Of a stretch of 64,000 bases of DNA, positions 16,256 through 64,000 are shown in pieces. Within the stretch, counting starts at the first letter, position 1; each line of letters starts with the position of its first letter. The stretch is from Pinctada imbricata (taxonomy: Eukaryota): assembly GCA_033119305.1 (NCBI GenBank), contig VSWD01000002.1, forward strand, positions 9,402,974 to 9,466,973, given 5' to 3'. Made by a program: the position numbers and the translations under genes. The notes beneath the pieces were generated by a model. The model searched no databases. It was not told the origin of the DNA and saw only the letters and a program-made list of their open reading frames with translations.

Positions 16256-17009
16256 ATTTCGGACTGTTCGAACAAAGGCATGACGTCACATCAATGTTTT
16301 AAATGTAAAGATGAAACATGTTCATTATGGTTAACTTTTGTCAAGATGAAGTATTAAGTTCCAGTGTCGAGGTTAAAAATTGAAAACATTCATGAGGGGG
16401 TGGACAGGATGAAAGGGAGGAGGGAGAAGGGATATTTGTGCCCCTCTTCTTTGTGACTGTCCCCTCTTCCCTCCCCATTCATGCATGGTACAGTAAACTT
16501 TTGATTTATAATTGTGATATTGGAGTTACTCTGGCTGTTTCTTTGGAACATCATGGTAAAATTGATTATGGATCGTTCTCTGAGTATTGCATGTTATATA
16601 ATATTGTCTAGCTTACCTGGTCTCACTCCCATATTGGGAGTTCGCTTCTTTTCATATGGTGGAGGTTTTTGTTTGTTTGCTTTGGTTCCTGTTTTATCCT
16701 GATTTTGTATGCCTTCGGTTTCTGATTTTCTGATTTATCAATTTTTGTATACAGGGATATGGTCTTTATCCATATTTATCATTATTGATATAAAAGATGA
16801 ATCTATTTTTAATGTTATGGATAAAATGAATGGTTCCGAGCCATTATATTGATATGAATCTTTTTTCTCAATATTGTATTGGATATATCTATCTGTGCTT
16901 ATTGTAATCAAAGATATTTAAATATAGTAGAAAATATGTCTTAAAAAATTTTTGTATGATATGATTCAATGTAGACTTCCATAGTACATGTATATGATGT
17001 ATACTACAG

Positions 17010-24299: not shown

Positions 24300-25085
24300 T
24301 GCTCTACATATCATGGTTGTTTATCTGAACACGACCTTGACATTATCTTAACACGACCTTGATCTAAACACGTCCTTGACATTATATGAACACGACCTTG
24401 ACATTATCTGAACACGACCTTGACATTATCGAAACACGAACTTGACATTATCGAAAAACGACCTTGACATTGTCTTAACACGACACGGAAATTATCGAAA
24501 CACGACCTTGACATTATATTAACACGACCTTGACAATATCTAAACACGACCTTGATCTAAACACGTCCTTGACATTATCGAAACACGGCCTTGACATAAT
24601 CGAAACACGAACTTGACATTATCGAAACACGATCTTGACATTATCGATATACGATCTTGACATTATCGAAACACGACCTTGACATTGTCTTAACACGACC
24701 TTGACATAATCGAAACACGACCTTGTCCATTATCGAAACACGACCTTGACATTATCTAAACACGACCTTGACACTATCGAAACACGACCTTGACATAATC
24801 GAAACACGTCCTTGACATTGTCTTAACACGACACTGAAATGTTCGAAACACTACCTTGACATTATATTAACACGACCTTGACATTGACTAAACACGACCT
24901 TGACCTTGTCTTAACAAGACCTTGACATTATCTTATCAAGACCTTGACATTATCGAAACACGACCTTGACAATATCTAAACACGGCCTTGACAATATCGA
25001 AACACGACCTTGACATATCTAAACACGGCCTTGACATTAATCTAAACATGACCTTGACATTATCTAAGCACGACCTTGACATTAT
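24300..25085. repeat. 22-bp minisatellite (GAAACACGACCTTGACATTATC), about 35 units with variants
   Basis: Direct reading. Confidence 0.9.
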
Positions 25086-25961
25086 CTAGGAATGCAGAAT
25101 CCCAAATACTTAAGTATTTGACATAATTTATATCAATTATGCAAAAAAGAAAAACGTCCTGAATCCAATAAGTATTTTACTCTGCTTTTCCATCGATCTA
25201 ACTTTCTGTTCATTTTCCCTTATACGAGTGCTCATACTAAATTACTGTCCTAAGTATAACTGGTCTTAGCTGTACGTTTCTTACTCTTATCTCAGTATAC
25301 CAGTCTTTTTCAATTAATATTTATCGAAGAAGTGATGTTTTTATCGTCAGTCGTCTACAATGTGATGGTCTGCTACCCAAAGGGAAGTTAAGATGTTTAT
25401 ATGAGGAAAGACTAATTTTCTTTATAAGAATCAATTAGCAATTGCCCATGTATGTCATTGGAAAGCAATAACAGCAATAGGAAGTTTCAAGGCAGATTTT
25501 CTTTAACTCACGTGGAGGAAAGTATGGAGAAGTTATAAATGTCAAACCTTGTAGACGGTAGAAAAAGATTTGCCATGTAAGGACACAATTTCTCCCAAAA
25601 TTGGTAAACCGTGACAAGTTCGATCTTACACTGTACCAATCCATCTCATAAGGTCTTAGTAATTAAATAATTTGTTTTACGTCCGCGGGCGGGTATCTTA
25701 CAGGAAAATTACTAAGAAAAAAAAAAAAAAACCCCGCACAAACATGTAAATTTTCCACTTAAAAATATCCAGAAATAATTTCAAATCAAATCATTTAACG
25801 ATCTTCTTTACCATAAAATGCCTATAACAACGTCAAATAAAAAGATAGTGTAAGAATTATCCAACTAACTTGAGTAATATTTTATCTTGTTTTTTTTTTC
25901 ACTCTTCCTTTCCTAATACAGTCATACGTGACGGTTATAATGGACTGACCAATATTGTTAT

Positions 25962-33750: not shown

Positions 33751-34539
33751 CATCAGTAAAGTGAATTTATGCGAAAATAGTTCCAATAAGTACGAATAAA
33801 TAAGTACTTGCTTTCGTACTAAATGCATGGCTAATACAATGAAAATTTAGATAATTAGAATTTCCAAAATGTATGCTTACTTCTTAGCTTTAAAATCAAA
33901 GTGGAACTTGTAGAACATGTCTGGTCCATGCCGCAAATTTATCTACTCCTAATTGATGCTATTGAATTTGAAGACGTTTAACATTCTATCGACGAAAAAC
34001 GATTGACATCTCGATTTGGAAAAAAACGTGCCTTTTTCATGTCTTGCTAAAATTCAGATATAGAAACTGGATTTTGAAATCCTGTACGCCCATTTAACAG
34101 CCTTAAATACCATTTGGTCGACCTAGAAATGTTCCTGTTTATGTTATTGCTTTAATTATTCTCAACCCTTGATTACTCTTGAACATAATTTTATATTTAC
34201 AATTAAAAGGATTCTACATGTAAATCAGAATAGCAATATTCCGTCTTCCCCAGTTTATTGCGTTTTTGTTTCTTAGCTGATACGATACCCCAGGGTATGT
34301 TCCAAATATGAAGATTTCATTGTTAGAGCCAGACGGCTTGCAAGGAAGCTACTTGTTCAGGGTTATATCACTCAACGGCTGAAATATTCTTCGGTCACTA
34401 CGAGGAAATTATAAAAGCATATCAAATCCCCCTTTCCAGAATGATCAGTGACATTCTACATTGTGATTGAATGGCTGTAGTCATCACCAAACAAGACATA
34501 CTCATCTGATCTGTACATCAAAATGTACATAGAAACAAT

Positions 34540-34710
34540 CACCGAATTTGACAGGTTTCCATGGAGCTGTTGTGACGGGTGTTGCATGCATTCAGGAGAC
34601 GCTGACTCTCCCCGGGCACCTGATTTCACTTCGGAGTGTTGTTCATTCCGGAATAGCAACCGTTCCGATGGGAATTCTCACGATTTGGCCTTGCCTTCGC
34701 GACTTTGAGA
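34540..34710 (-). mobile_element. SINE-like repeat with core CGAAGTGAGACCAGGTGCCCGGGGAGAGTCAGCGTCTCCTG
   Basis: Reverse complement matches 47200-47360 and 63545-63712 over about 160 bp. Confidence 0.55.
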
Positions 34711-34914
34711 CTGAATAATTGTTAGGTACTTCTTTGATGTTTATTTGGTCGACCTAGAAATGTTCCTGTTTATGGTATTGCTTTGCTTATTCTCAACCAT
34801 TGATTACTCTTGAACATGAAATTATATATTAACAATAATGATTCCACAGGTAGATCAGAATCATATTGTTCGTAGATCGACGTCACAAATTTTAGGAAAA
34901 GGCATTTCTTCAAA

Positions 34915-35270
34915 TAAATGAGGGGATCTCTAACAACACCCGATTGCAGTACCAACAGCAAAACCCCAAAACACCCACTGCATAAACACAAAGCAGACAT
35001 ACCAGAAAGAGACGAAAATGGTTCAAGCAGTGCCAAATTACATAGTAACATCAAATACAAATGACTGCACATAAACCAACGAGACCAATGGGTAATCGGT
35101 GCCGACTTAGGACGGCCATCAGCCACGTCAGTAGCAGACGGTGTGGTTATCCTGCTTACGTGCACACAACCCTCCCACTTTTCCGATTACCCAGAGGTCT
35201 CGAAGACTGTACAATTGTTGTGTAAAATGACCTCCTCACTGTAAGATGACCATACAATCAGACAGCATGA
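34915..35270 (+). mobile_element. SINE-like dispersed repeat, family 'F1' (..AACAACACC.GATTG.AG.ACC.ACAGCAAAACCCCAAAACACCCA...CCAATGGG.AA.CGGTGCCGACTTAGGACGGCCATC...TTTTCCGATTACCCAGAGGTCTCGAAGA...)
   Basis: Other copies at 43040-43390 (+), 49340-49800 (-) and 57215-57654 (-). Confidence 0.55.
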
Positions 35271-36094
35271 GGCAGGGGCCCAAGAAACACACAGATGGAT
35301 AAGTAAAAGGATATAAAACATAAGGCGTACGAATCTGATAGATTCATTTGTTTGCTTGGTTGGTTTGTTCTTTAGTTTCTAACATATTAGTTTCGTAGTA
35401 TTCCATTGTTTATCAGATATTCAAACAAATTTTATTGGAAATCAGTAGAAAATCTAGCAGATCTATAAATAATGTATTTTATGTTGCGATTCAACCATAC
35501 CTTCTACTTAAATAATTTTGGCACAATTATACTTTTAATTTTTTTTATATTCTGTCATGACTGTGCTTCATGACATGATCGAACTCTTCAATATTTTAGT
35601 ATCATTTTAAGTTATTTTCTATAGAATGTAGATGAGATATTTATGAGAACGAATATTAAATATTCATGCACCACTCTGCAGGTAATAAGTAAAAGGGTCG
35701 CGGGAGTACTTGGATTCTCTTTTATGCAAACACTAAGAATAAATTAAGCATGTATGAAAACGTTTCTGACGAACTCAAAGCATATCCTGGCTCTCTTAAT
35801 TTGCTTCGTGCTAATACATTATACATTTATTATAGATTTGCCTAATACATTATAGATTTAACTTATACATTATAGATTTACCTAAAATAGCCTTCAAGTT
35901 GGTAAAAAGAAGATTTCCTTAGTTGCATCTTCGAAGAAAAGTTGAGGTCCGCTCTGTTTATCTCTAAAGATAGATTGGGAAACCTGCGCATGCTTGTGTG
36001 ATTCTCCATGGGTATTTCGCTAATTTGTTTTCGGTCCTTTGTTACTTTAAGATAACCTCTCTATGAACATGATGACATTAGTTAAATGAGTTAA

Positions 36095-36245
36095 AGAAGA
36101 TCCTGACGACAATCTTAACAACACTCACAATAGGACACCAAATTGAGCATCGACGGACCCCTTGCAAGCTAGAGGTGGGACCAGGTGCCCGGGGGGAGTA
36201 AGCATCCCCTGTTGGCTAGCCGCACCCAACGTCCATGTTCAAGTC
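36095..36245 (+). mobile_element. SINE-like repeat, family 'F2' (ATCCTGACGACAATCTCAACA...ATTGAGCATCGACGGACCCC..GCAAGCTAGAGGTGGGACCAGGTGCCCGGG.GGAGTAAGCATCCCCTGTTGGCTAGCCGCACCC)
   Basis: Near-identical copies at 46555-46700 and 52365-52470, and a fragment at 62510-62590. Confidence 0.55.
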
Positions 36246-36685
36246 TAGTAAATTGTATAGCGTCACAATTATGTGGAGGAGATATCCACAACAGGATGCA
36301 ACGAAAGCTTAATTATTTCAGAATAGAAAAAAAGGCATGAACTCAATAGTTCAGTTTTAAATGTATTAATTACTTTATTCCTGCTCTGTCGCCTGAAAGA
36401 AACTTTTTTTTGGCACTTATATTAATTTAATCTTTTTTTAAACTTGTCATTCCATCCAAAAATGTTGTCGAAATTAAAGGAGGTTAACATCTTAACATCA
36501 TCCCTCCAATGCTATTTTGAAAAGATTTTATTTGGATATCGATCCTGAATCGATCCTACAGGAAATTTGGAGCCGCGCATTCTCGGAAAAGTAAAGTAAA
36601 TTCACAAATTTAAATTCTGAAAATAAATCCACAGGGCAATTCTGAAATGAATTTTGGCGGCTTATGGAAAACACTTTGATTGGAA

Positions 36686-36729
36686 GCATCACTGATGAGG
36701 ATCTAATATCCGAAACACGTGTCTGGTGC
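36686..36729 (+). ncRNA. Type I hammerhead ribozyme motif (helix I GCAUCA/UGGUGC; CUGAUGA; helix II GGAU-cuaau-AUCC; GAAA; minimal helix III C-acgu-G; GUC cleavage triplet with the predicted cut after 36723)
   Basis: All conserved core nucleotides are present and the three helices pair as drawn by hand; it lies inside a dispersed repeat that recurs with degenerate cores at 36956, 42500 (-), 43468 (-) and 63835. Confidence 0.6.
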
Positions 36730-39549
36730 ATAATTTGGTTTGAAGGTATCTAGATGGAACCCTTCCGTATTATTTCAATGCTTTTCATATATGACATTTT
36801 GAGAATAGATTTCAACTCATTCGAAAATTTCTGTTATCAAAACTTCTTGAAATTTCTATACCGCTGGTCCTGTAGCATCATATTCTACCCATCTTGCTAC
36901 GCCTTTCGGTGAATTTTTGGAAACAACTTTACCACTCTTTGACCATATAACATTGTTTAGACTGAGGATCACTGACGAGGGTTAAGTACTCGAAACGTAC
37001 ATGCTGCAACTTTATCTGTTCTTAAATGATACTATTGAATTTGAAGACGTTTAACATTTTAAAAGTTAATTCTTAGTTTATTGTGCTGGACCCTGATGTA
37101 GCATATATTTTGGATATCAAAGAAAAAATGGTTTCCGACTATGCCAGTATAATTGCAAATCCCAAATAGTGTTGTTATTCGAATTACTAGTGCACAACCC
37201 TCCCATCTGTTAAGTTACCAAGCAGTCCAGTATAATTGTTAAGTATAAAAGCCACCTCATTGTAAGATCCCTCCCTATTAATTTTAGCTTTTCACTTTCA
37301 TTCACTGATAATGATGACGAAAATCAAAATGTGCACCAGACACCCTCTGACCTTACCTGATATTGATGTTGAGTTTGGTAGCATTGTTATTACGTCTACC
37401 TACATGAACTGTAAAATATTGTATTGGAAAAGCTGTCACTGTGCGACCAACAGAAAACTATAGTTATATGACGTTCAAAAATGTATATTTCATAATATTT
37501 TAATGTATATTATATTATAATATTATATAAGTAATTTGTATCAACCAATCAGATTGCTAGCTAACGGTTCAATATTTTACGATATTGCACAGCTGTGCGC
37601 CTCGCTTTTGATTTACATCTAAAATTGGGAGGAAATGAATGAATTACTCACGATTGAGTAACGATTCCAATAAATCATATTAAGTGCACGTGTGTATATG
37701 AAAATCTGAATTTGAAAATGACTGTACATTGATGTCATTAAGCCAGTTTAGGACACTGCATGTAGATATACTATGCAGCTATGTACATTATGTCTATAAT
37801 AAACATTTCCTCCAATTTTACGATCGACTCCCTATATTCCTGGAATATTATGAATTTGAAACCTTTCTCTATGTAAAAGAAAGTTGTAACAGTATCAGCC
37901 AATGTAAGTTTCAATATCAAAGGAACATTTAAGCTCTCATTTGCTGAAATAAGCCGCTCAGTTCACAGTTTACATTCTTTGAAATTGATCTGTACAAGGA
38001 ACGTTATCGTATGTCATAGCCGTGGGTGAATATACAAGTACTGAATGACAGAGATCTGTCGAGCATTTGTCTTTTGATTTTCAGAAATCTGACATTCCTG
38101 TAAACGGCCATGTTAGAGGTAAGTTGATAGGCTTGAATACATAAAAGAGGGTTGCTAATTAGCATGTCTAGAATATGAAAGGAAGCATTTTTTTAATTGA
38201 AATTCAATTTATGAGTCATTGAAGTGTTCCACATCGAAACCGTCTTGAACATAATTTCAAGCCAATTTTAATGCAATAGACACGTGTTTCGGATAGTAAA
38301 TCCTCATCAACGGTACTAGTACTTAATGCCAAAGTGACACAGTCAAATAATTTCAGTAGCGTGTTAAACGTTTTCAAATTCATTAGCATCATTTTAGCTT
38401 TTAAATTAACAGCATGGACCAGACATGCACGTTTCGGGTAATAAGTTATGTTTTATCTTTTTTATTTCCATCTCTGTCTAGTTTTCATTCCGTCAAATTC
38501 AAATGAATACTAGTAATATTTAGTCTGTCAGCTTGAAGATGAAGAATTTATACTCTCCAAGTTGTTGTTATCTACTATACAATTAGGCCGAGGTTAACCA
38601 ATGCCTGACCAGGTCTGTAAAGTCACGAGTAGACCGAAATCGAAAGTCAGTAACTGCTTTATTAAATTATCAGGATTTTATGAACATTTGCATTGTAATG
38701 ATACGCGAAGTCAAAGATCAGGAATTATTACCGATTTTGCTTATTTCTGATTGATGGAGACGCTGTTTGATAGAGTGTACCTCAGAGTTAGTTGACCGCT
38801 TACGCTCCAAAGCGGTCTATTCGGGATTAGCGCGTGCGGGACCAGCGCGTGCGTTGATTTTTGTAGTGTTAGATCTTTGCCTAAGTACATGTAATAATAT
38901 TCCATATTTTTGAGAGTTTGAATAAAAATGTCTTGATGTACATTGATAAAGTAATATGGATATAGGATGGATCAGAATAGCTAAATTATTCAGAAAATTT
39001 AAAAAGAGCTGGCGAGCGGCAGCGAGCCAAATCATATTTTGAAATCGACCGAAAAATTGTAGATGGATGGTAAAAAATGTTGCTATTTTAAACAATGTTA
39101 ATGCATCATAGAATATTGTGATAGGGGGGGGGGGGTGAAAGGGGGGGGGGGCACAAACATGGTTGTGCCCCCGCTTTTCAAAGTGGGAAGGCTGCCCCCT
39201 TCTCCTACGCCCTTGTTGGTGTATACTACTTTGGCAGTGTATAAATGTGTTGACCAGTAGCCTGTTTCACAAAAATACTTTCGAACAATTTCAGGAATTT
39301 TCGTAACGCTTGATTGCTCAGTTCTACTTGCAGAAATTTGCGAAGTTTTGTTTCTGAATGTACCGGTATATTTAGTACGTAGAAATGATACAAGAATACT
39401 TTATATATATTACATATATACAGCCTGAACAGAAAACACTCTGAACCCTATGTTAAATGACGAAATTCCATCAAATTTTCGTAAGAATTTTTGTGAATGA
39501 ATGACAAATATGGATAATGACCATATCCCTGTCTACAGTACAAAATCGA

Positions 39550-39735
39550 TAATTCAGAAAATCAGAAACCGAAGGCATACAAAATCAGGATAAAACAGGA
39601 ACCAAAGCAAACAAAAACAAAAACCTCCACCATATGAAAAGAAGCGAACTCCCGATATGAGAGTGAGACCAGGTGCCCAGGAAGAGTAAGCATCTCCTGC
39701 TTGCATGCAACACCCGTCGCAGAAATGATGAGTAA
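39550..39735 (+). mobile_element. SINE-like repeat, subfamily with CAGAAAATCAGAAACCGAAGGCATACAAAATCAGGATAAAA...GAGACCAGGTGCCCAGGAAGAGTAAGCATCTCCTGCTTGCATGCAACACCCGTCGC; contains a local 40-bp duplication
   Basis: Copies at 60815-60990 (+) and 16590-16735 (-), plus a fragment at 47075-47130. Confidence 0.55.
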
Positions 39736-40039: not shown

Positions 40040-41578
40040 CAAGTTAAAAGTCATGTTTGTAAAATGCCCCCCTGCCCCTTCTGTGATTAAAGTCTGTCAA
40101 AACTTTATACTTGCATTGATACAACCTATGGGGGTATAAAGTAACAGTTTCATTTCAATATGTAACTCCACTCAAGAGATATTGAACAGAAACCCTGAAG
40201 TTTTGGTATTTTTCAAAGTGCAAGGGGCATAACTCTGTCCAAATTTTTTTGATCGGACCTAAATATGAACTTGACCTAGATTTTCATTTGATGTGTCTGT
40301 ATACAAAATTTCATTTTTATATGTAACTCCACTCAAGAGATATTGAACGGAAACCCTGAAATTTTGGTATTTTTCGAAGTGCAAGGGGCATTACTCTGTC
40401 AAAATTTTGTTGATTGGACCCAAATAAAAACTTGACCTAGATTGTCATTTGATGTATCCATATACAAAATTTCATTTCAATATGTAACTCCACTCAAGAG
40501 ATATTGAACGGAAACCCTGAAATTTTGGGTTTTTTCGAAGTGCAAGGGGCATTACTCTGTCAAAATTTTGTTGATTGGACCCAAAGAAAAACTTGACCTA
40601 GATTGTCATTTGATGTATCCGTATACAAAATTTCATTTCAATATGTAACTCAACTCAAGAGATATTGAACGGAAACCCTGAAATTTTGGTTTTTTTTCGA
40701 AGTGCAAGGGGCATAACTCTGTCCAAATTTTTTCGATCGGACCTTAATACGAACTTGACCTGGATTTTCATTTGATGTGTCTGTATACAAAATTTCATTT
40801 CAATATGTAACTCCATTCAAGAGATAATGAACGGAAACCCTGAAATTTTGGTATTTTTTGAAGTGCAAGGGGCATAACTCTGTCAAAATTTTTTTGATCG
40901 GACCCAAATATGAACTTGACCTAAATTTTTGTTTGATGTGACTGTATACAAAATTTCATTTCAATATGTGAATCCACTCAAGAGATATTGAACGGAAACC
41001 CTGAAATTTTGGTATTTTTCGAAGTGCAAGGGGCATAACTCTGTCAAAATTTTTTCGATCGGACCTTAATACGAACTTGACCTGGATTTTCATTTGATGT
41101 GTCTGTATACAAAATTTCATTTCAATATGTAACTCCATTCAAGAGATATTGAACGGAAACCCTGAAATTTTGGTATTTTTCGAAATGCAAGGGGCATAAC
41201 TCTGTCCAAATTTTTTTGATCGGACCCAAATATGAACTTGACCTAGATTTTTGTTTGATGTGTCTGTATACAAAATTTCATTTCAATATGTAACTCCATT
41301 CAAGAGATATTGAACGGAAACCCTGAAATTTTGGTATTTTTCGAAATGCAAGGGGCATAACTCTGTCAAAATTTTTTGATCGGACCCAAATGTGAACTTG
41401 ACCTAGATTTTTGTTTGATGTGTCTGTATACCAAATTTCATTTCAATATGTGAATCCATTCCAGAGATATTGAACGGAAACTGATGTCGCGGACCGACCG
41501 ACAGACCGACCGACCGACCGACCGACAGCGGCAAACCTATATGTCCCCTCTTCTTCGAAGGGGGGCATAAAAAGTAAA
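40040..41578 (+). mobile_element. Pearl/Helentron-like element: about 9 tandem 161-bp satellite monomers, then a (GACC)n microsatellite, then terminal hairpin TATATGTCCCCTC..GAAGGGGGGCATA; inverted copy of 7290-8545
   Basis: Monomer is the reverse complement of the 7413-8400 monomer; the 5' end at 40060 contains ATGCCCCCC, which is inverted relative to the 3' hairpin. Confidence 0.6.
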
Positions 41579-43039
41579 TGTGATAATATTACATGATTGG
41601 CACCCAGGATTGAGCTTTTAATTTAGAAAAAAATAATTCAATTAAGTGCTGAGATCAATGTCAATATGACTATAGAAAATGGTATGCAATGTAAACAGTA
41701 AACTTCTCGATAATATAAATGAAATAATGCAATGACAAAAGGAAAATTATCAAGAATTGAATATGGTTGAAGGGAAGGGAGTGGCAAAAAAAAAAAAGTT
41801 CATCGTGCTTGTTGTTGAGATTTTCAATTTAAAAAAAAGTGATGATATCACCTAGCTGGATTTTGATTGGTAGTTTTTATAAGAGACCTTTCCTGATTGG
41901 TCGAATTCCTGCAAATATAATTTATCGAGGGGAATTTCACAACAAGGTTACAATGTAAACATAAAGCAGTGAACAATTCTAAGAATAACTCTAAACATCT
42001 GGTATGACAGTATAGACCTTGTATAGGCAGATAATAGGTGCATTCATAATGTACAACAGTACATAAATAATTTACAGGAAATTCATCAGACATAAATAAA
42101 ATTATGAACAAAAATATCGTTCTATGCTAAAAACAAATTAGCTCGGTGCCCCTTAGTTTGATTTCCATATTTTAAAATGCATTAACAATGGGCTCTTATG
42201 AATGCTTTTCATACCTTTATACGCTACAGTCATTTTCAACTATCCTTGTCTTCTGTTAGACTAACACAATTATCTGGGCAAAACTCGGGGAAAGTACCGG
42301 TATGCATGCATACCCCATAATTTTCTTTTCATATTATTGGACATTGGGTAAAGATAATACAGGTTTCAAATATATATATAATATATATGTTTTAAAACTG
42401 TTTCTACAATGTAAAAAATGTAAAATTTTGAAATTTTCCATAGGGTGTAACATGTTAAGGTCATTGAACAGATAAATTTGCAGCAAGGACCAGACATGCA
42501 CGTTTCGGGCACTTAAGCCCCGTCAGTGATCCTCAATCTGAACGATGTAATGTGGCCAAAGAGTGTGAAAATTATTATGACCGGAAATGTACCGAAAGAC
42601 GTAGCATGATGGATGGGACATGATGCTACAGGACCAATGTTTTTGAAATTTCAAGAAATCTGTACAATCTAGGGTCTATTTGAAACGTTTTTATAAAAAG
42701 TGCAAAGGTGATAAGCACGAAAAATTCCCCCCCAAAAAATGTTATCATAGGGTGATTACAAGCTCTCGCGATCAAAGGTACGATGTACCTTAAAGGGGTT
42801 GAACAAGGTTTTTTTTTTATTTTGTTCTTAAAATTGTTTCCTTTTTTTAAATATCTGTGTTATTGTCTCCGTCTTTTTATGTACTTTTCGTTTTTATTTC
42901 TCAAACAAATTATAATCCTTTCAATGGTGATTTTTTGATCTGATTTCGGGTTTTGTCTCACAATGAATATGTCTAATGCATGGGGATCTATCTTGGCAAA
43001 TACAATAAAACCCTATAAATGGTAAACGTCTTCAAACAA

Positions 43040-43390
43040 AGGAGGGGATCTCCAACAACACCAGATTGTAGCACCCACAGCAAAACCCCAAAACACCCAA
43101 TGCAAAAACACAAAGCAGACAAGCACAGAAAGAGACGTGTAAGGGACAAGGAACGTCAACGCACAACACAGAAACATCAAACACGAAGGACTACACATAA
43201 ACCAACGAGACCAATGGGCAACCGGTGCCGACTTAGGACGGCCATCTGCCACGGAAATAGCTGAAGGTATGGTTATCCTGGATTAAGTGCGCACAACCCT
43301 CCAACTTTTCCGATTACCCAGAGGTCTCGAAGAACGCACAATTGTGGTGTAAAACAACCTCCTCACTGTCAGATGACCACACACAAACAA
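43040..43390 (+). mobile_element. SINE-like repeat F1 copy, followed immediately (43430-43600) by a degenerate hammerhead-family repeat
   Basis: Alignment by eye with the 34915, 49340 (reverse complement) and 57215 (reverse complement) copies. Confidence 0.5.
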
Positions 43391-43989
43391 GACCGCAAAA
43401 CGCAGGGTACAAATTCAATAGCATCATTTAAGAACAGATAAATTTGCAGCATGGACAAGGCATGCACGTTTTGGGTACTTGACCCTCGTCAGTGACACTC
43501 AATCTAAACAATGTAATAAGGCCAAAGAGTGTGAATGTTATTATGTCCAAAAATGTACCGAAAGACGTAGCAGAATGAGTAGGATACGATGCTATAGGAC
43601 AAATTAATTACATCAGTTTTCAAATTTGTAACATAATAAAACAGGTTGTGTATCTAATATTTGTCTAATTGCTCTCTAATAACTTCTAGTCTGTATGAAT
43701 CTATGATATAGGTAAAGCATACTCCAGGAAATGTTCTGTAACCTACCTCCCCGACACAAATTTAGGAAGGGTAAGGTAGGGTATCAAGTAAAAAATCCTC
43801 CTTGAAATCCCATAGGGGAGGGGATTACATACTATTTCTGGAATAGCCTATTCCTCATATGTCATAATTGCCTACATGTTTTTACGCCTAATGTCAATGC
43901 CTTTCTTCTCTATGTAGGCAGATTGTTCTTGATAATGCAATATATGGAAAATTCCTTTGCCTTTTTAATCGAGAGGGGAAAACTTATAT

Positions 43990-44420: not shown

Positions 44421-46121
44421 AAGAGATGATTTTGGATTCAAAATAATAAATTTTCCCTAGTTTGACGGTGATTTTCATAGATTACCGTCATAGATTATAT
44501 ACATTCCACAACTCATCCTGTATGCTAGAGCATGTTATGATGTTTTGGATTTTCATAGTAGAAATTTACAAATAACGAAGAAACTTTTAGGTCAAGGGTT
44601 TTACTTTCACAAACTAGTAAAGACTTTGATCCTAATGTCACCAGACGGACACTAGGCTTGGTACTTGACCAATCGACAGTCTTGTACCAGCTCATTTTAA
44701 AGACTTGCACTCTGACTGATTGTGACGACAGGACCCCATGACGGGCCCTGTCCAAACCCCTTTTAGAGAAGACAGTGTCTCGACCACCTGTCCTCTCTGA
44801 ATGTCAGTCGGACTCCTCATACGCGCGCACACAAAGAGATTGGAGTCAAAACGTGTACATTGTGGAATGAACGTCAAAATAGAATCAATATGTACTTTTG
44901 TCCCTTATTTTACGTCAACTTGAAATGTAAATAAAATGAGATTGAAAACAGAAAAGAGGTCAAGGTTATTTTTATAATTAAGGACCCATATTAGGTTGTA
45001 ACATATAAAGAAGGAAAATATGTGTTCATGAAAACACTGATGTAAATAATTACACAAATTTTATGATTTACTATGCAAGATGATCAACAATCATTATCGT
45101 AAAACCCATTACATTATTTCGAAAAAGCAAGAAAATGACTCAATTTTGTACAAAAACTCTCATTAACGTTAGAAGAGTCATATGCTTGAGCAGTCAATTT
45201 TGTACAGATAGAAAATAGGCCTCATTCTAACATGTCAGAGCATCAAAAACATAATTCATTAAAATACAGACGGGTTGAACATGGTGTAGGAGTGAGCAGG
45301 AATGAGTCGGGTATGATGAAAGACTTTCCGAAAAAGCCAATAACCATTTTAATTTGCAAATTAGTAATGAAACCATGCACCAGAAATAATTAAAATTGCT
45401 TTTCTAAAAATTGATTAAAGATCATACAAAACCTGGCATAATGGTAAAAATATTACTTTTAAAAAGTTGCAATCCGCGTGTCATGTGACCATGCAATTCC
45501 AGGAGGAATACGCATCTCTCTTCCTACATGAAAAATTGAAATAAAAGTCCAAAACATGGATTGATTTCAGAGTCATGTTTCAGAGACATTCTGTACGAAT
45601 ATTTTAATACATTCGAAACCTTGAAATGAAATTGTATCGTATTAAATTGCAGTATCGTTCAGGCCAATTCTTTATTGTCTACCATTCATATATTTCTTCG
45701 GTAAATTTGATGCTGTTATAAATATTTCAGATGTATCGAATTTTCTATATAAGTGTTTTGATAAATGTATATCGTGACAGTTTTCATTTAAGTAAATACT
45801 GTATAAATTGTTTGCATGCATAAATGATGAATTTTATGATTGTTCGTAGTTAGACGTAACTTTTCTATAACTATTTTGTACTATGCTTCATTTCCCATTC
45901 ATATCATATGAAAGGTAACCATGATAATGTTTTGTATTTTACATTTTGTACGTAGGGAATTCACACTTTAACATAGGAATATATTATGGATATGTCTATA
46001 TACAGCTTTGAAAAGTTACTAGAACCGTCATCATTGTAATTGAAATGACTCATTTTTTCCATGATTATTTGCTGCTTGATGTCTTATAAAAAATTGAAAT
46101 GATTTATCTTTTTTCAAATAG

Positions 46122-46283: not shown

Positions 46284-47199
46284 CATTCTAATGCAATCTA
46301 TATGTTTGTGTATATGAGGCGAAATGTGACGTAAGCAACGTCAAAGCCTAGCATGTTCTCGTTTTACCGTCGTAACTAAGGAGCAAATAACCAACGAAAA
46401 TCGACGTTAAAGCGACGTTGCATTAGAATACAAAATTTACGAAGTCAATTATTAAAAATCGTATTTAATGCTTTTATTTTAGGTAAAAGTGTTTATAGAG
46501 GTCTGCATTCTCTAGGTTTTATATTTTACCCCAAAACACTCAGTAATGGAATAAAAGATATCCTGACGATAATCTCAACAGCTTCACAATAGAGCACAGG
46601 ATTGAGCATCGACGGCCCCTTAGCAAGCTAGAGGTGGGACCAGGTGCCCGTGAGGAGTAAGCATCCCCTGTTGGCTAGCCGCACCCGCACACTCAGTATC
46701 CATGGTACATTCTTCAAAGAGGGAATACTAGGGATAACGCTTACCGAGCAAAACATGATATTTATGTCATAGATTTCATTTAACAATGCTACTGAATCGA
46801 CCCTACATAAATTTTGAGCCGCACACTCTCTGCAAAATAAATGCTAAAAAATTCTAGACATAAAACCAGGGGGTGCTACTGAAATACATTTGCCTGTGTC
46901 AGAAAATCACTTCGGCATTTAATAGTGCTGATGAGGATTTACCATCCATGGTGCATTGAAATCGGTTTGATATGTTCTTCAAGAAGGTCAAGAGTTGGAA
47001 CATTTCCGTATTATCCAATACTAAAACGTATGCATAACAAATATTGATAATGACCATATCCCTGTATATAGCACAAAATCGAAAATTCAGAAAATCAGAA
47101 ACCGAAGGCATACAAAATCATGAAATATTGTAATCATAAATTATGACATGTCTTTATACATAATTTTTAATAGTAACTATTGAATTATGCTTGGATGAT

Positions 47200-47360
47200 A
47201 AGTAGAAATAAACATCGAAGAAGATTCAGTCTCAAAGTCGAGAAGGCGAAATCATTAGCATTTTCATTGGAACAGTACCGGAACAAGCAATATTCCGAAG
47301 TGAGACCAGGTGCCTGGGGAGAGTCAGTGTCTCATGTTTGCATGCAACACTCGCCGCAAC
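47200..47360 (+). mobile_element. SINE-like repeat (..CTCAAAGTCGAGAAGGC...TTCCATTGGAAC...GAAGTGAGACCAGGTGCC.GGGGAGAGTCAG.GTCTC.TG.TTGCATGCAACAC)
   Basis: Matches the reverse complement of 34540-34710 and 63545-63712. Confidence 0.55.
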
Positions 47361-48832: not shown

Positions 48833-49339
48833 AAATTGTGAAGATACCAATTGTCGTCATCTTTATGACTGTCTGTTTCTGTGTATCATGTATAGGGGGA
48901 GAGCTTTACATAATGTTGTTAAAACTTGTTGTCCTATCCCTTTTCGCTTTATATTGAAATAAAATGTTTACACTAAACTGAACTAAAATACCGAAAATAG
49001 GTAGTTCTACCTTGGGTATTTCACAACCTGCATTTTATGGTGACATAATAAACAAGATCAGAAGAATCAAAGATAGACAACATAACTATCGAAAATACGT
49101 CAGAATCATCAACCGCCTTTTATTCCGTAGATATGATCCTATTGTCACCAGACAGACACTAGGCTTGGTACTTGACCAATCTACAGTCTTGTACAAGCGC
49201 ACTCTTAAAACTTGCACTCTGACTGACTGTGACGACGGGACTCCATGACGGGCCCTGTCCAAACCTCTTTAGAAAAGACATGGCTTCGACCACCTGTCCT
49301 CTCTGAATGTCAGTCGAACTCCTCGGGTGATAACATACT

Positions 49340-49800
49340 TGAGCTCGCCGCGGCAGAGAACGGATTGTATTACGTACATTCACATATTCATCTGTGTTGC
49401 TTGGGCCTTTGCGTTTTGCGGTCTTGTTTGTTTGTGATCATTTGACAGTGAGGAGGTTGTTTTACACCACAATTGTACGTTCTTCGAGACCTCTGGGTAA
49501 TCAGAAAGGAAAAGTGGGAATGTTGTGCGCACGAAATCCAGGATAACCACACCTTCTGCCACTTCCGTGGCAGATGGCCGTCCTAAGTCGGCACCGGTTG
49601 TCCATTGGTCTCGTTGGTTTATGTGTAGTCCTTTGTGTTTGATGTTTCTGTGTTGTGTGTTGACGTTTCTTGTCCCTTTTGCGTCTCTTTCTGTGCTTGT
49701 CTGCTTTGTGTTTTTGCATTGGGTGTTTTGGGGTTTTGCTGTGGGTGCTGCAACCTGGTGTTGTTGGAGATCCCCTCCTTTGTCTTGAATGAAATAAATG
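49340..49800 (-). mobile_element. Full-length (about 460 bp) SINE-like F1 copy; the 200 bp immediately upstream (49128-49335) duplicates 44625-44835
   Basis: Reverse complement aligns with 43040-43390, and its tail aligns with 57225-57330. Confidence 0.55.
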
Positions 49801-51431
49801 AAGAAATAATTTATAATTATGCTATAATTCATAATTTCTACAAAGAATTATTTACTTAATTTTGATACAGAATTCATGATTAAATGCCTCTGGCAAATAA
49901 GGAAGAAAACAAAAGTATAGATACATAACAACTTGATTTATATCATCATCACCATGATCAATATAGAAAAACGCGATATGATATATTATGTAACCCTAAA
50001 AGGTTTTCTTGTAGTTTCATTAGACGCGACCAATAGTGATGCGATATGAACAATGAAAGGTTTAAAAGTCATTTATTCCACAAACTGACCGAATGGGCAT
50101 TTGTAAAATGATGTGCCTTCGTCTCATTGGTGCACATTTCCTCTGATGTTGATTTCCTATAAATAATCGATCATATGGGAGGTATATTCATTCAGATTAT
50201 GTTCAATCCAACCTCACTGAGTTTGTACTTTTACCTATTCTCTGGACGGTGTGATATATTCATGTATATTGAGGTATGTATTTTTATGAAAGTTTTAAAA
50301 ATGTCTCATTTTTTTTCTAAAACAAATTGTCGCAATATTTCTATCCTACTTTTTAGAATGTTATACTCCTTTTTTGCGATTCGAGATTTTTGTTTGTTAA
50401 CTAACCTTATTTGCATTTTTATAATTTACAATTTACATTACATTATTTTACATTTTTACAATTAACAATATACATTATTTCACATTTTTACATTTTACTT
50501 ATAATTATTTTACATTTTTACAATTTACAATTCACATTATTTAATATTTCTACAATTTACTCGTAAATTAGCCTTGCCTTCTCGACTTTGAGACTGAATA
50601 ACTATTGGGTACTTTCATGTTTATCTGGACTAGAAAAATTTCTAAATGTGAAAAAGGCTAACATTAAAGTCTCTGTATTGATCGTCAGAAAGACACCTCG
50701 ACAATAATATTCTGTCATATGCTCCATTTCGTCCACTTATCAATGACAAATATGGAAAATGACCATATTTCATTGTCGACAGGGTAGAGACTTAACATGG
50801 CTAAAGGGAATTACTATAAAAAATGAGAACCTTTTGAAGTGTAATAAGGTAAAAAGACAATCCTTATGCCTGGAATATATGAAAACGGATGAGATTCCAA
50901 TGAGAGCGGTATTTCTGTAAATTGTTTCAGTATAATCAGAGGAGATTCTCTTTTTTCTATTCTACTAGATTTTAGACGACTCATCTTTAACATGCATAAA
51001 ATACCGAAATTACAGATTCTATCAAAGGCCCAGCTGCACAATAATCTTGATCGTCCGGTCGTACTTACGGCACGATTTGAGCATCAGAAATGGAATTACA
51101 AACAGCTAAAAATCCAAGAGCCTTTTTCTCATTATACAAAATACGCATAGACTCGGTACAATTTTTCAAGAGTCACATACTTTGCACCTAGAACATTCAC
51201 ATAAAAGGACCATCTATGATAAATATCGTTCTTACACTGGATTCTATTGAGGTTGTTTCTTAGATAGTGGTTATTGTCTCCGTCATCCCGTGTCGTCTAC
51301 TTACAAAATGTTCTCAAATTTCTAAAAACTGGGTCCTGCAGCATCATATCCCAGTCATCTTGCTACGTATTTCGGTATATATTGGACATATATTTCACAG
51401 ATTTTAGCCATATTTCATTGTTTTGGATTGA

Positions 51432-51477
51432 GGATCACTGACGAGGGTTTAGTACCCGAAACGTGCATGTCTGGTCC
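51432..51477 (+). ncRNA. Type I hammerhead ribozyme motif (GGAUCA CUGACGA GGGU-uuagu-ACCC GAAA C-gugcau-G UC | UGGUCC), unit 1 of a tandem dimer
   Basis: Core and helices read by hand; it differs from the 51577 copy only in the helix II loop. Confidence 0.6.
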
Positions 51478-51576
51478 ATGCTGTTATTGTAATCTATCTG
51501 CTTTTTAATGATGCTAATGGATTAGAAGACGTTTAACATTTCGCACTCTTTGGTCATATGATATTGTTTAGATTGA

Positions 51577-51622
51577 GGATCACTGACGAGGGTTAAGTAC
51601 CCGAAACGTGCATGTCTGGTCC
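51577..51622 (+). ncRNA. Type I hammerhead ribozyme motif, unit 2 (helix II GGGU-uaagu-ACCC); 145 bp downstream of unit 1 in the same orientation
   Basis: Core CUGACGA...GAAA...GUC and helix I 6 bp (GGAUCA/UGGUCC). Confidence 0.6.
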
Positions 51623-52725
51623 ATGCTGCCAATTTATTTTTTCTTAAATGATGCTATTGAATTTGAAGACGTAAAACATTCACATATATATATGCACCAA
51701 TGATATATTTCGTTCTTAAACTGAGCTGAGGTTGTTTACTAGATAGTGTTTTCCTTCTCGTATTTCTGTTATGTTGTCATTGTCTTCGCCACCTCGTCTC
51801 GTCTGAATTTGTTCCGCTTTTTTCTCTGTTGGAAATGTCCTCCCCATATTTAGTTTTGATTTATGAATTCAAGATTTTGTATGGCATGCCTATTGGATTA
51901 AGTATTCCACTTTCATTTATTAATTTGACCCGTACATAACCCAAATTCCCCCTACGTTGGTCTCTTCGTTATGCTTAGGTGTCATCCTGTGTAATGTGGT
52001 TGTGTTCCATTGGTGAATAATTTATGTTCGAATGAGAATTGATTCCGTTTAGAACATAATTAGTTGACAGAATATAATGATGAAAACTTACATTATATAG
52101 GCAGTTTTAAGGCGTCAAAATATATCATGTCGCAAATTTGAGCTAATAGCCAATGAAATAACACATCATATATATGACGGATATTGAAAAGACATCCAGC
52201 AACATAGATTGAACTGTTCACATCGGAAAATACCTGCAGAAAAGCGAAAGAAAGGACTGGATCTATAACAAGACTCGGTTACAGTACCTACAGCAACACA
52301 CCAAAAACAACCCATGTATAAACACAACTAGAGTTAAAATGCACAGCAGTGAGATAAATAAGATCATGACGACAATCTCAACAGCACTTACAATAGAGCA
52401 CGAAATTGAGCATCGACGGACCCCCAGCAAGCTAGAGGTGGGACCAGGTGCCCGGGAGGAATAAGCAAGATACGCGAAAGGGACAAGGAACACCAACGCA
52501 CGCCATAGAAATATGAAACACAAATACGGCATAAAAAGAAGCATATCACAAAGGACAACAAGACTTCACATGAACCAACGGGACGAATGTTCAACCGTTG
52601 CCGACTAAGGACGGCCATCTGTATATAAACAATTATCGAATAAGGCATATCTTTAACATACGTGTAAAAAGTAAATTAGAGTCATGGTTTCTTTTCAGAT
52701 GACTTGATGAACTATATCCCACAAA

Positions 52726-52947
52726 ATGCAGAAACACCCAGTCCCAGACCTTATCCTCCTCTTTCTACTTGTGAGCTCGTCCAGCGGGAAGGATCCATTA
52801 TACATAGGGGGATTTTTCCCGATGCAGGATGGAGCGTGGGATGGTTCCGGTATATTACCGGCAGCACAGATGGCCATAGAAGATGTTAATGCATACCCTC
52901 ATATACTACCTGACCATGAACTCCATCTAGTCTGGAATAATAGCATG
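52726..52947 (+). CDS. GABBR1: GABA-B receptor subunit 1-like gene, first coding exon (signal peptide MQKHPVPDLILLFLLVSSSSG, then KDPLYIGGFFPMQDGAWDGSGILPAAQMAIEDVNAYPHILPDHELHLVWNNSM)
   Basis: From memory, this aligns with GABBR1 '..[50 protein letters not shown]'; donor ATG|GTAGGA at 52948. Confidence 0.7.
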
Positions 52948-53490
52948 GTAGGAAAATCAAATCAGACATTATTGTGCCTAAAAAAAGGGACATTATTGCT
53001 TAGTTTCTGTTCTTCATAGAATTGACGTCACAAATTCCTAAAAAAAAGGGAATATGACGTCATGACTAGTTATTACAGGAAACTTTTAAATAGATAAATG
53101 TAGCATACGTTATTTAAATTTTGCAACGCACGAAGAATGCATTAATTAATCTAAGGAAAATTGTAACATAAAGACGTTGCAAAAAGGTACCTTTTATTTG
53201 AAAGTTTATTTTCATTAGAGGTATTTGTTTCGATAGTGATGAAATATAGATTGAAATTTAAACAGGCAAATGACAAAAAAAAAAACTACCAAATGAACAG
53301 AAATGAAAGGATTCCAATACGACACCATTTGATAGCTTTTTCAAAAAGTTTTACATAACGAAATATTTTTTATACCTCTGATACGTTATGCACACGATAC
53401 GATACGATACGTATCACGATATTTGCTTTCGGTACAATTCGTATAAAAATTTATCGGTTTTTTTTTACCTCTGAATCATTAAATTTGCAG

Positions 53491-53628
53491 TGTAATGTCG
53501 GAGAGTCAATGAAGTCCCTATTTTACCAGTTGGACTCGGTACCACAGATCCACATGATCCTGGGGGCCGGATGTAGTTCTGTGACCAAGGTCATCGCAGA
53601 AACTGTGAAGCATTGGAATCTGGTACAG
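53491..53628 (+). CDS. GABBR1: GABA-B-R1-like exon 2 (CNVGESMKSLFYQLDSVPQIHMILGAGCSSVTKVIAETVKHWNLVQ)
   Basis: Acceptor TTTGCAG|TGT; donor CAG|GTAAGA; 138 bp, phase 0 to phase 0; matches GABBR1 '[45 protein letters not shown]'. Confidence 0.75.
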
Positions 53629-54053
53629 GTAAGAATATACTGCTTGTTTGAATAAGTATGTTTTTAAAGTTGAAAATCAATGACTGCTATTCTGTTTTAT
53701 TCAGTAACTGTAGGTTCATGCGCATTTTATATTGTCATGAATATTCAGGCATTAATTGAAAGGGCATATCATACAAACTTTCTTAGGACAATAAAATCAT
53801 TTTGTTTCACATATTAAAATATGGTCGATGCTGATATTTCTTTCAAATTATTCTTGTTTATTTATTTAATTTTTTTTCAAAATCGATTACAAATTCCTTT
53901 AATTCAGAAAGAATCTGAACTGTGGCTTTATTTACCGGGTACTAGTTCAAGTGAAATGATTGTGAAACATTTAGTAAAAACCCTAGTTATAATGTATTGT
54001 GCATAGATGTTTGAGTATTTTAGATAAGTAACCTGACGTAAACATTTTGCCAG

Positions 54054-54224: not shown

Positions 54225-54916
54225 GTAAATAAATTATAAATTGTGTTGTTTAACATATGATTTGATTTTTAAAATAATTAAATGATATCTGGAATCCCCT
54301 CCTTATCGTGCTACATTGTTTCAATAATTTCCAAGCATTACCAATTCCCTCGAAATGTTCTATAGAAGGAAATTGTCCATCGTTAAGCTAACACGCGCGT
54401 ATATTCCTATAAAGCGGTACACTATTTAACAAGCTGAGCCACCTAGCTGTAATAAGTGGATTCAAACTTTACCATGATTCCTTGAGGGGTTATTAGACCT
54501 GTTTTTACATCTATTTTCACAAAAAGACGAAGTTGCTCCTCTACTTTCGTTTTCAATTTCATCCGCATCGAATGATTTTAAAATTCGATCTCGAAATTAA
54601 AGAGGGCGATTTTTTTATAAAATAAATTTGATCAGAGAAAAACGGAAGCGGAAAATCCGACGAACGAAATATCAGTTTGGTGTGGCCTAACGGGAAAAAT
54701 TCCATGATATGTTCTTGAATGATGTTATTGAATTTGAAGACGTTTAACATTATCGAAACAAAGGGCAACACTATATGTATGAATAATCAACACAGAAATA
54801 ATTATCTATATGTATATTGAAGAGGATTACAGAGAAAAATTCAAATAGGATGTTAAGATCGACATCATGTTTGTCTAAAGTAAACGGGAAACGATATGGA
54901 AGCTATTGACTTGTAG

Positions 54917-56519: not shown

Positions 56520-57214
56520 ATTGTCATAGCGCGCCGTCCGTCGTCCGTCGTTGTCGTCCGTCCGGCGTAAACTTTTAACATTTTCGACATCTCCTCTGCA
56601 ATTGCTGCATGGAATATCACCGAACCTTACAGGAAGGAAGTACTCAAGGTCCTCTACCAAGTTTGGGTTTTTCATGCCGAACGGTCAACAAATATGGCCA
56701 CCTAGGGCTCTGATTGGCTGACACATTTTCGACATCTCCTCTGCAACCGCTGCACAGAATTTCATGAAACTTTACAGGAAATAAGTAGTCAAGGTCCTCT
56801 ACCAAATTTGTTTTTTTTTTGTGCCGATCGGTCAACAAATATGGCCGCCGGGGGCTCTGATTGGCTGACACATTTTCGACATCTCCTCTGCAACCGCTGC
56901 ACAGAATTTCATGAAACTTTACAGGAAGGAAGTACTCAAGGTCCTCTACCAAGTTTGTGTTTTTTTTTCTTTGTGCCGATTGGTCAACAAATATGGCCGC
57001 CGAGGGCTCTGATTGGCTGACACATTTTCGACATCTCCTCTGCAACCGCTGCACAGAATTTCATGAAACTTTACAGGAAGGAAGTACTCAAGGTCCTCTA
57101 CCAAGTTTGTGTTTTTTTTTTTTTGTGCCGATTGGTCAACAAATATGGCCGCCGAGGGCTCTGATTGGCTGACACATTTTCGACATCTCCTCTGCAACCG
57201 CTGCACAGAATTTC

Positions 57215-57654
57215 ATGAAACTTTACAAACCGGCAGAGCACGGACTGTATTACGCATGCCCTCTTTTTATATCCATTTACATATTCATCTGTGTCTCTGG
57301 GGCCTCTGCGTTTCGCGGTCTTGTTTGTGTGATGTCATCTTACAGTGAGGAGGTTGTTTTACACCACATTTGTACGTTCTTCGAGACCTCTGGGTAATTG
57401 GAGAAGTGAGAGGGTTGTGCGCACGTAATCCAGGATAACCACACCATTTGCTACTTGCGTGACAGATGGCCGTCCAAAGTCGGCACCGGTTACCCATTGG
57501 TCTCGTCGGTTTATGTGTAGTCTTTTGTGTTTGATGTTTACATGTCGTGTGTCTCTTTTCCGTCTCGTGCTGTACTCGTCTTTTGTGTTTTTGCATCGGG
57601 TGTTTTGGTGTTTTACTGTTGATGCTGCAACGGGGTCTTGTTGGAGATCTCCTC
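57215..57654 (-). mobile_element. SINE-like F1 element inserted into a 150-bp repeat unit, with about 6 bp TTTACA duplicated at both junctions
   Basis: Unit sequence ..GAAACTTTACAGGAAGG.. is split into ..AACTTTACAAaccggcagag[element]cttctTTTTACAAGAAGGAAG.. Confidence 0.5.
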
Positions 57655-63712: not shown

Positions 63713-64000
63713 GACCCTACAGAAATTAGCCGCATACTTTCTGTAAAGTAAATGCTGGCTCAAATTTCGATAATAAAAATAAAACTAGAGTGCGCTACAG
63801 AAATGAATTTTGGCGGCTTATGTAAAACACTTTGGCTGGAAGCATCACTGATGAGGATTTGATATCTTAAACACGTATCTGGTGCATAATAAATTGGTTG
63901 GAAATTTCCTTCAGTTGGAGCCCTTCCGTAGTATTCTTTCATGTTTATATTTTACAATAGAATATATCAAAACTTAAAATATATCACTTCTTATCATAAC

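Follow-up and report, generated by a model that had tools for sequence, protein, structure and literature searches.

Two related non-coding repeats with type I hammerhead motifs in a 64-kb stretch of the Pinctada imbricata genome, probably short retrozyme-like elements

A stretch of 64,000 nucleotides from Pinctada imbricata (GenBank assembly GCA_033119305.1, contig VSWD01000002.1, positions 9,402,974 to 9,466,973 of the forward strand), referred to here as the window, holds some twelve copies of a pair of related non-coding repeats, A (about 225 to 290 bp) and B (about 230 bp), in both of which a hammerhead ribozyme motif lies at a fixed position. We interpret A and B as subfamilies of a non-autonomous, non-coding retroelement that carry one type I hammerhead each and belong to the class of non-long-terminal-repeat (non-LTR) retrozymes and relatives derived from Penelope-like elements (PLEs), and we put the probability of this interpretation at about 0.75. 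The class is a well-described one, and the sequences of A and B do not match those of any published family checked.

The window was searched on both strands with a strict type I descriptor, which demanded the core and minimum lengths of 4 bp for helix I, 3 bp for helix II, and 2 bp for helix III, the A15.1-U16.1 pair being counted in helix III. The chance level was set by 300 first-order Markov simulations of the window. Three intact motifs were found in the 64 kb, compared with a mean of 0.023 in the simulated sequences, and a looser descriptor of the "minimal hammerhead" in which a U3-A8 variant core was allowed returned the same three matches. A chance origin of these matches to the hammerhead consensus would be in keeping with the bare CUGANGA..GAAA pattern, which is not enriched in the window (7 seen and 5.7 expected), and with the silence of the Rfam models described below. 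However, chance does not explain the count obtained with the full descriptor, the equal position of the motifs within homologous repeats, the compensatory changes between the subfamilies, or the preservation of the ribozyme above its flanks. The descriptor count, the covariance-model matches, the compensatory changes, and the conservation of a tandem pair of motifs together rule out chance, to which we assign a negligible probability.

The motif at 36686, described as a canonical hammerhead in the first-pass annotation of this DNA, was borne out by the strict descriptor, with a full core and a paired helix I. It reads GCAUCA-CUGAUGA-GGAU(CUAAU)AUCC-GAAA-C(ACGU)G-UC-UGGUGC and holds all invariant core positions (CUGAUGA at 36692-36698, GAAA at 36712-36715, and C17 at 36723), with a predicted cleavage site between 36723 and 36724. 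Helices I, II, and III are 6, 4, and 2 bp long, the loop ACGU is palindromic, and the wiring is that of type I, in which loops close helices II and III and leave helix I open. The two other intact motifs, at 51432-51477 and 51577-51622, form a tandem pair on the + strand with a spacing of 145 bp, and helix III of the first has 3 bp (A-U, C-G, and G.U) and the palindromic loop UGCA. Cleavage of the pair at the predicted sites would free a 145-nt RNA (51472-51616), and judged by their sequence these two motifs are the best candidates for activity. The core (C3 U4 G5 A6 N7 G8 A9, G12 A13 A14, A15.1-U16.1, and an H17 that is not G) is complete in the three intact copies, whereas at least one position fails in each of the six other hammerhead-bearing copies.

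The census of copies was based on a BLAST search of the window against itself and on alignments (Table 1). Family A is recognized by its helix II (GGAU/AUCC) and loop 3 (ACGU), and family B by the core CUGACGA, helix II GGGU/ACCC, a helix III of A-U, C-G, and G.U, and the loop UGCA. The A element at 36553 has a 3' limit that is firm to about 36775 and probable to 36838. A covariance model made from four B copies only recovered A copies at 43.8 bits (E=1e-11, the 36686 motif), 26.8 bits, and 20.1 bits; with the filters off, it found nothing further below an E value of 0.05 in the window, and the census therefore appears complete for this stretch. The point lesions named in the first-pass annotation are all present in the alignments, namely, A9 to G in the 42532 copy, G12 to A in the 43498 copy, and a loss of G12 in the 63842 copy, where it is changed to U. 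The deletion that it had placed near 36990 spans 11 nt and takes both the GUC and the complete helix I 3' strand from a motif whose helix I 5' strand (36966-36971) and core CUGACGA (36972-36978) are still in place. Its description of a few intact copies among many dead ones also agrees with our count of three intact motifs in nine. However, the supposed degenerate partner of the 36686 motif is not a twin of it, as it belongs to a subfamily B member that directly follows the A element, at 280 bp from core to core. Absent from that annotation were the intact tandem B pair and two further dead copies, at 38316-38273(-) and 46928(+).

Both comparative and folding analyses bear on the structure of the motifs. 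When seven copies were aligned under the guidance of the model, 93% of the cells paired, compared with 25 to 58% with slid partners, and double compensatory changes distinguish A from B at pair 2 of helix I (G-C/C-G) and pair 3 of helix II (G-C/A-U). With a small sample and an alignment fitted to the model, the pairing and covariation are supportive, not decisive. The helix III strand and its loop are self-complementary in both subfamilies (ACACGUGU in A and, counting G.U pairs, ACGUGCAUGU in B). In RNAcofold, the minimum of the homodimer was exactly the double hammerhead for both, with energies of -24.9 kcal/mol for A (versus 2 x -8.2) and -33.3 kcal/mol for B (versus 2 x -11.3), an intermolecular helix III of 8 or 10 bp, and each core facing the GUC of the other strand. 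For the tandem transcript 51425-51630, the minimum was -50.1 kcal/mol, compared with -46.7 kcal/mol for the constrained double hammerhead and -32.1 kcal/mol for two monomer hammerheads. The three-helix junction proposed for the 36686 motif thus did not fail in folding, but the minimum of the monomer is a different structure, and the preferred hammerhead form is the dimer, which we predict to be the active one. This prediction is supported by the palindromy of helix III, which is kept in both subfamilies despite their different sequences. In constrained folds of extended sequences, a helix I extension or internal loop that could provide loop 1/loop 2 contacts was inconsistent across the copies.

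The ribozyme is better conserved than the sequence around it. In the tandem pair, 1 of 46 ribozyme positions is changed from one unit to the other, compared with 30 of 101 positions in the flanks (Fisher p=5e-5). Among the B copies, the hammerhead is 80 to 89% identical, compared with 55 to 65% for the 90 nt upstream and 60 nt downstream. Because its conservation exceeds that of the flanks, the ribozyme has been under purifying selection, either in the source RNAs of the copies or at the locus itself.

The ends and joins of the copies point to a discrete mobile unit. Three B copies share a 5' end (36839, 42661, and 51306), as do three A copies (36553, 46792, and 63713), and in both sets the upstream sequences are unrelated. 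Every B copy that reaches its end stops at ...TTGAAGACGTTTAACATT, which is followed by neither an A-rich nor a simple-repeat tail. Four B copies (33916, 38444(-), 51538, and 54707) and one A copy are 5' truncated at varied points with the 3' end kept. Head-to-tail joins occur at three places, with a full B followed by a truncated B at 51306-51680, a truncated B by a truncated A at 38444-38225(-), and an A by a B at 36553-37058. In the last of these, the homology of A to the 63713 copy extends to the first base of B, with a score of 31 compared with 20.2 +/- 3.6 for shuffled sequences (11 of 1,000 as high). Copies of + and - orientation lie close together at 36.5-38.5 kb. The units are 145 to 290 bp long and non-coding, with a GC content of 0.35 to 0.38 and no open reading frame (ORF) of 90 amino acids or more within the elements. 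Given the common ends, the 5' truncation, the head-to-tail joins, and the absence of coding capacity, the pattern, as far as it can be read from the copies, is that of a short non-autonomous retroelement inserted through target-primed reverse transcription in which 5' truncation and template switches are frequent; this supports the retrotransposed, non-autonomous family that had been proposed earlier. The existence of A-B chimeras implies a common machinery for the two subfamilies. A further unit after 37058 was considered and rejected, as the alignment scores were no better than those of shuffled sequences, and an origin of the 22-bp satellite (24321-25088) from the B tail was dismissed, as the satellite has no B element at its edge.

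The copies could instead derive from autonomous PLEs, either as solo pseudo-LTRs or as 3' ends left by 5' truncation, with no separate short element. Hammerheads of PLEs sit near the 3' ends, in pseudo-LTRs, and heavy 5' truncation, partial tandems, and inverted copies are common to these elements (PMC8557442, PMC4209133); the window likewise contains 5'-truncated copies that share a 3' end, partially tandem copies, and the neighboring +/- copies. However, three B and three A copies stop at the same 5' nucleotides next to unrelated upstream sequence, and such common stops argue for a short full-length element, unlike the random truncation of an element of 3 to 4 kb. No reverse transcriptase or GIY-YIG domain was detected in ORFs of at least 75 amino acids between 15.3 and 64 kb, and helix III, which typical "minimal" PLE hammerheads are without, is present here. 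We therefore consider an origin as PLE fragments unlikely and retain the separate short element as the preferred interpretation.

Another possible origin is as polymerase III short interspersed elements (SINEs) with a hammerhead, comparable to Sm-alpha of Schistosoma (cited in PMC4209133) and mobilized by a long interspersed element (LINE) instead of a PLE. Like Sm-alpha, A and B are dispersed, SINE-sized, non-coding repeats with a type I hammerhead in each; copies are 5' truncated, and the 3' tail could mimic the 3' end of a LINE. Sm-alpha, which is active in monomeric form, is distinguished by a stable helix III and by polymerase III promoter boxes, and neither of the two was seen in A or B. 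ARAGORN found no tRNA-like sequence, and thus no tRNA-like head, in the whole window, and no convincing A and B promoter boxes were recognized on inspection. No poly(A) or simple-repeat tail follows the terminal ...AACATT, and partial copies joined head to tail are seen more typically with PLE-type insertion (PMC8557442). A SINE origin thus appears distinctly improbable, and the PLE-related retrozyme remains the better description of the family.

The first-pass annotation had also suggested a composite element made with SINEs, from two places where dead copies abut other repeats, but neither junction upholds this. The B copy at 43604-43410(-) runs to ...GCTATTGAATTTG, is followed by repeat E, and continues with the B tail TTTGAAGACGTTTACCATT at 43040-43022; because the tail resumes past it, repeat E is an insertion nested in a dead B copy. 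The copies of the SINE-like repeat S at 34577 and 47350 extend at least 13 nt further than the one ending at 63712, and directly after that end, at 63713, the A element starts with its usual 5' end. From the sequences on its near side we read this as an insertion junction, not as a common architecture; the far side falls outside the window. Repeat E, which is unrelated to the hammerhead family, has four copies in the window that are 83 to 93% identical, one of them with a 150-amino-acid ORF of no known family. The core of repeat S is also found by itself in several other repeats, and this points to a common SINE "core" module.

In the mechanism that we propose, the near-palindromic helix III strands of a transcript with at least two units would pair together, a double hammerhead would form, and each core would cut after the GUC of the other unit. 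The unit-length RNA freed in this way would bear a 5'-OH and a 2',3'-cyclic phosphate and could be circularized by a host tRNA ligase of the RtcB type. A reverse transcriptase acting in trans, most likely from a PLE, would then copy the unit RNA into DNA by target-primed synthesis, which would be prone to 5' truncation and template switching, and most inserted copies would afterwards decay neutrally. We infer the cleavage, the circularization, and the identity of the reverse transcriptase from the literature, and likewise the copy number, activity, and partner elements beyond the window.

That literature offers close parallels. Most metazoan hammerheads are of type I, with 6 bp in helix I, 4 bp in helix II, 1 to 2 bp in helix III, and a palindromic loop, and motifs with such a short helix III cleave poorly as monomers and are active as dimers when a second copy is near (PMC4209133). 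The anatomy of A and B matches this description point for point. Non-LTR retrozymes are AT-rich non-coding repeats of about 170 to 400 bp with these ribozymes, often with two ribozyme subfamilies per genome, and are circularized by an RtcB-type ligase, not by the ribozyme (PMC7229834). Their unit lengths lie between 51 and 972 bp, the majority of the families have seven repeats or fewer, the monomer fraction varies from 0 to 1, and phylogenetically the elements lie near PLE pseudo-LTRs; an "active" retrozyme has been defined as a tandem with a type I hammerhead in every unit (Li, Clavereau & Pollet 2026, 10.64898/2026.07.22.740005). The locus 51306-51680, both units of which are intact, falls under this definition. 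A and B resemble the metazoan non-LTR retrozymes in their type I hammerhead per unit, their short AT-rich non-coding units, the occurrence of head-to-tail repeats along with many dispersed monomers, the absence of LTRs, primer-binding site, and polypurine tract, and the presence of two ribozyme subfamilies in one genome, as has been reported in mussel and axolotl. They differ in that there is one two-unit tandem only, the second unit of which is a 145-bp truncated form, and in that the circles of the literature are highly self-paired, whereas the unit RNAs here are not predicted to be unusually so.

Penelope-like insertion has three hallmarks (Craig et al. 2021, PMC8557442), and the window has all of them, namely, copies truncated at the 5' end, partial tandem arrays, and inverted copies next to one another. 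With the hammerheads of PLE pseudo-LTRs (PMC4209133, PMC8557442), A and B further share the type I topology and the expected dimeric action. However, most PLE hammerheads belong to the "minimal" type, which lacks helix III and has an extended helix II and a shortened helix I, whereas those described here have canonical helices of 6, 4, and 2 to 3 bp, and no ORF for a reverse transcriptase or GIY-YIG domain adjoins the A and B copies. A very short helix III, a palindromic tetraloop, and cleavage as a dimer are also features of newt satellite 2, axolotl HHR_Amex1-2, and the double hammerhead of the avocado sunblotch viroid, as summarized in PMC4209133 and PMC7229834, which cite Forster et al. 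1988. The helix III of 2 to 3 bp found here is like that of axolotl Amex2 and the invertebrate motifs, that of Amex1 being 1 bp. The host and the sequence differ from those of the newt, axolotl, and viroid motifs, and dimer dependence is predicted here.

Several results weigh against the interpretation as a retrozyme-like family. The hammerhead is not the minimum fold of the monomer in either subfamily (-4.9 compared with -8.2 kcal/mol for A and -8.0 compared with -11.3 kcal/mol for B), and monomer folding energies were no better than those of shuffled sequences (z about -0.2), although poor monomer folding is expected from a helix III of only 2 to 3 bp with a self-complementary strand and loop. 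When the unit RNAs were folded as circles, the z scores against dinucleotide shuffles were -0.16, -0.49, +1.86, and +1.41, indicating no unusual stability, with 59 to 61% of the bases paired; single genomic copies and not a consensus were folded, which makes this a weak test. A true tandem with an intact motif in each unit occurs at one locus only, 51306-51680, and the other loci are dispersed monomers or mixed A/B joins with dead motifs. No target-site duplications were clearly readable around the truncated copies. The lack of a reverse transcriptase or GIY-YIG remnant, noted above against the PLE-fragment origin, is also a point on this side; the only Pfam matches in the ORFs searched were a weak one to ANF_receptor and one to Gam (16.6 bits, cut-off 25, E=0.0097), the latter regarded as chance. 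All copies surveyed come from the single 64-kb window.

The Rfam results count on the same side. Rfam was run at gathering scores and at E values of up to 10 for the whole window and for two loci. None of the hammerhead models (RF00163, clan CL00010) reached its gathering score in the window. With E values of up to 10, the sole match was to Hammerhead_3 at 36672-36721, with 15.7 bits (gathering score, 48.5) and the wrong topology, and there were no matches at all at the tandem pair (51400-51660). The search with RF00163 that the first-pass annotation had recommended therefore detects nothing at gathering in the window and misses the intact tandem pair even at the permissive threshold. A scan of metagenome and viral contigs with an over-general pattern, CTGANGAGGNTNNANTANCCGAAAC, gave no family A or B relative among the matches listed, which comprised more than 240 contigs with phage and bacterial hammerheads that have a long helix III. 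The supplement of PMC7229834 contains no sequence string matching the A or B ribozymes. Among phage and environmental hammerheads with a long helix III, the helix II/loop 2 pattern GGNTNNANTANCC is found very often beside CUGANGA and GAAAC, a likeness in motif only, with no sequence kinship to the A/B family.

Host roles for the tandem pair were weighed as well. The host might have co-opted the pair at 51432-51622, either for self-cleavage in cis or as the gene from which a small circular RNA is made. The 98% identity of its ribozymes, compared with about 70% for the flanks, speaks for such a role, and the weak ANF_receptor match at 52711-53016 lies on the same strand about 1.1 kb downstream. 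However, two diverged source RNAs with selected ribozymes would give the same conservation pattern, and we consider co-option very improbable. A more elaborate version also reads as a long shot. In it, 51306-51680 would be a maintained source of a 145-nt hammerhead circular RNA produced by obligate double-hammerhead cleavage, the A-B and B-A chimeras would record one reverse transcriptase switching between co-expressed ribozyme RNAs, and the family would be a two-partner retrozyme that co-packages heterologous units, with a possible cis effect on a class C G protein-coupled receptor (GPCR)-like gene. Relatives of the GPCR-like exons were found only as short Logan/ENA proteins that are 69 to 74% identical, and the contigs of these relatives contain no A or B element.

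The window holds several other features outside the hammerhead family. The homology search with an uninterrupted ORF of 1,270 amino acids was dominated by heptads like those of the RNA polymerase II C-terminal domain (CTD), and no full-length homologue was found. Its stretch GGKQLATKAARKSAPASGGV is nearly identical to what we take to be the K27 region of histone H3; then follow six 98%-identical 141-bp repeats, each with RKVLATKAARKAAPGAGGVH and an acidic serine tract, and a long RS/SR-rich tail. From its sequence, the product looks like a protein with tandem mimics of the H3 tail and the CTD. Two long hairpins that match microRNA models look like inverted repeats of the miniature inverted-repeat transposable element (MITE) type, not conserved microRNA genes. 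Two weak matches to the selenocysteine insertion sequence model SECIS_1 fall within repeated sequence (CTCTGACTGA..GTGACGAC.GGAC.CCATGACGGGCCCTGTCCAAAC). Selenoprotein-encoding Naiad Penelope-like elements are known in clams and spiders (Craig et al. 2021, PMC8557442), and these matches could be remnants of a Naiad-type element.

Table 1. Coordinates of the hammerhead family and of other features of the window
Feature	Position	Strand	Remarks
Family A element	36553..36838	+	Intact hammerhead; 5' end TCGAYCCTACAG common to copies 63713 and 46792
Intact type I hammerhead, family A	36686..36729	+	Descriptor; 43.8 bits with B-only covariance model
Family A element, runs off window end	63713..64000	+	Hammerhead 63842-63885 dead: G12 to U, G16.2 to A
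Family A element	46792..47010	+	CUGAUGA and helix II kept (46928-46947); GAAAC..GUC deleted
5'-truncated family A	38225..38350	-	Hammerhead 38316-38273 dead: C3 to U, helix I broken; abuts B 3' end
Family B element, directly after A element	36839..37058	+	Ends in TTGAAGACGTTTAACATT
Dead family B hammerhead	36966..37005	+	11-nt deletion takes GUC and helix I 3' strand; helix II C to U
Full-length family B, first tandem unit	51306..51540	+	Intact hammerhead
Intact type I hammerhead, family B	51432..51477	+	Descriptor; predicted cleavage after C51471
5'-truncated family B, second tandem unit	51538..51680	+	Head to tail with first unit; intact hammerhead
Intact type I hammerhead, family B	51577..51622	+	Descriptor; predicted cleavage after C51616
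Family B element	42466..42661	-	Hammerhead 42532-42487 dead: A9 to G, helix II changes
Family B element	43410..43604	-	Hammerhead 43498-43453 dead: G12 to A, GUC to GCC, helix I changes; 3' tail split by repeat E
5'-truncated family B	38362..38444	-	Begins within hammerhead; 3' half only
5'-truncated family B	33916..33986	+	Begins within helix III; usual B 3' end
Family B 3' tail only (extreme 5' truncation)	54707..54751	+	B 3' end
Inverted 23-nt fragment, weak match to family A GUC/helix I 3' region	37321..37343	-	May be chance
Repeat E, about 375 bp	43031..43407	-	Nested in B copy tail
Other repeat E copies	34907-35277 (-), 49410-49789 (+), 57306-57662 (+)		
SINE-like repeat S	63555-63712, 34577-34745, 47210-47350 (-)		Conserved core GGAGACGCTGACTCTCCCCGGGCACCTGG
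S core fragments, about 45 nt	36172-36213, 39662-39715, 46631-46672, 60925-60980, 62519-62565		
Probable class C GPCR/GABA-B-like receptor exons	52711-53016, 53359-53652	+	ANF_receptor 22.4 bits, cut-off 25.4
Uninterrupted 1,270-amino-acid ORF	11391-15203	+	RNA polymerase II CTD-like heptads (YSPTSPAYSPTSPAY)
27-bp satellite	1-1485		55 copies, 96% matches
161-bp satellite arrays	7398-8250, 40148-41481, 60332-60656		
141-145-bp arrays	8776-9551, 56578-58462		Units keep long ORFs
22-bp array	24321-25088		
Long near-perfect hairpins	16165-16256, 15263-15321		mir-219 (both strands) and mir-1537 at about half gathering score
Weak SECIS_1 matches	44730-44794, 49237-49300	+	26.4 and 22.6 bits; gathering score 35

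The family opens no new question of its own. The metazoan hammerhead variant that it carries is missed by the Rfam models even though it is common, and Rfam-based annotation therefore under-reports such ribozymes. If confirmed, the family would extend the list of animal genomes known to contain hammerhead retroelements by one and would contribute two sequence subfamilies that are new. It would also provide a clean, small example of the dimer-dependent architecture, with palindromy kept in two differing subfamilies, as well as an example of ribozyme selection against a neutral background, and the chimeric joins between the subfamilies would bear on how such elements are reverse-transcribed.

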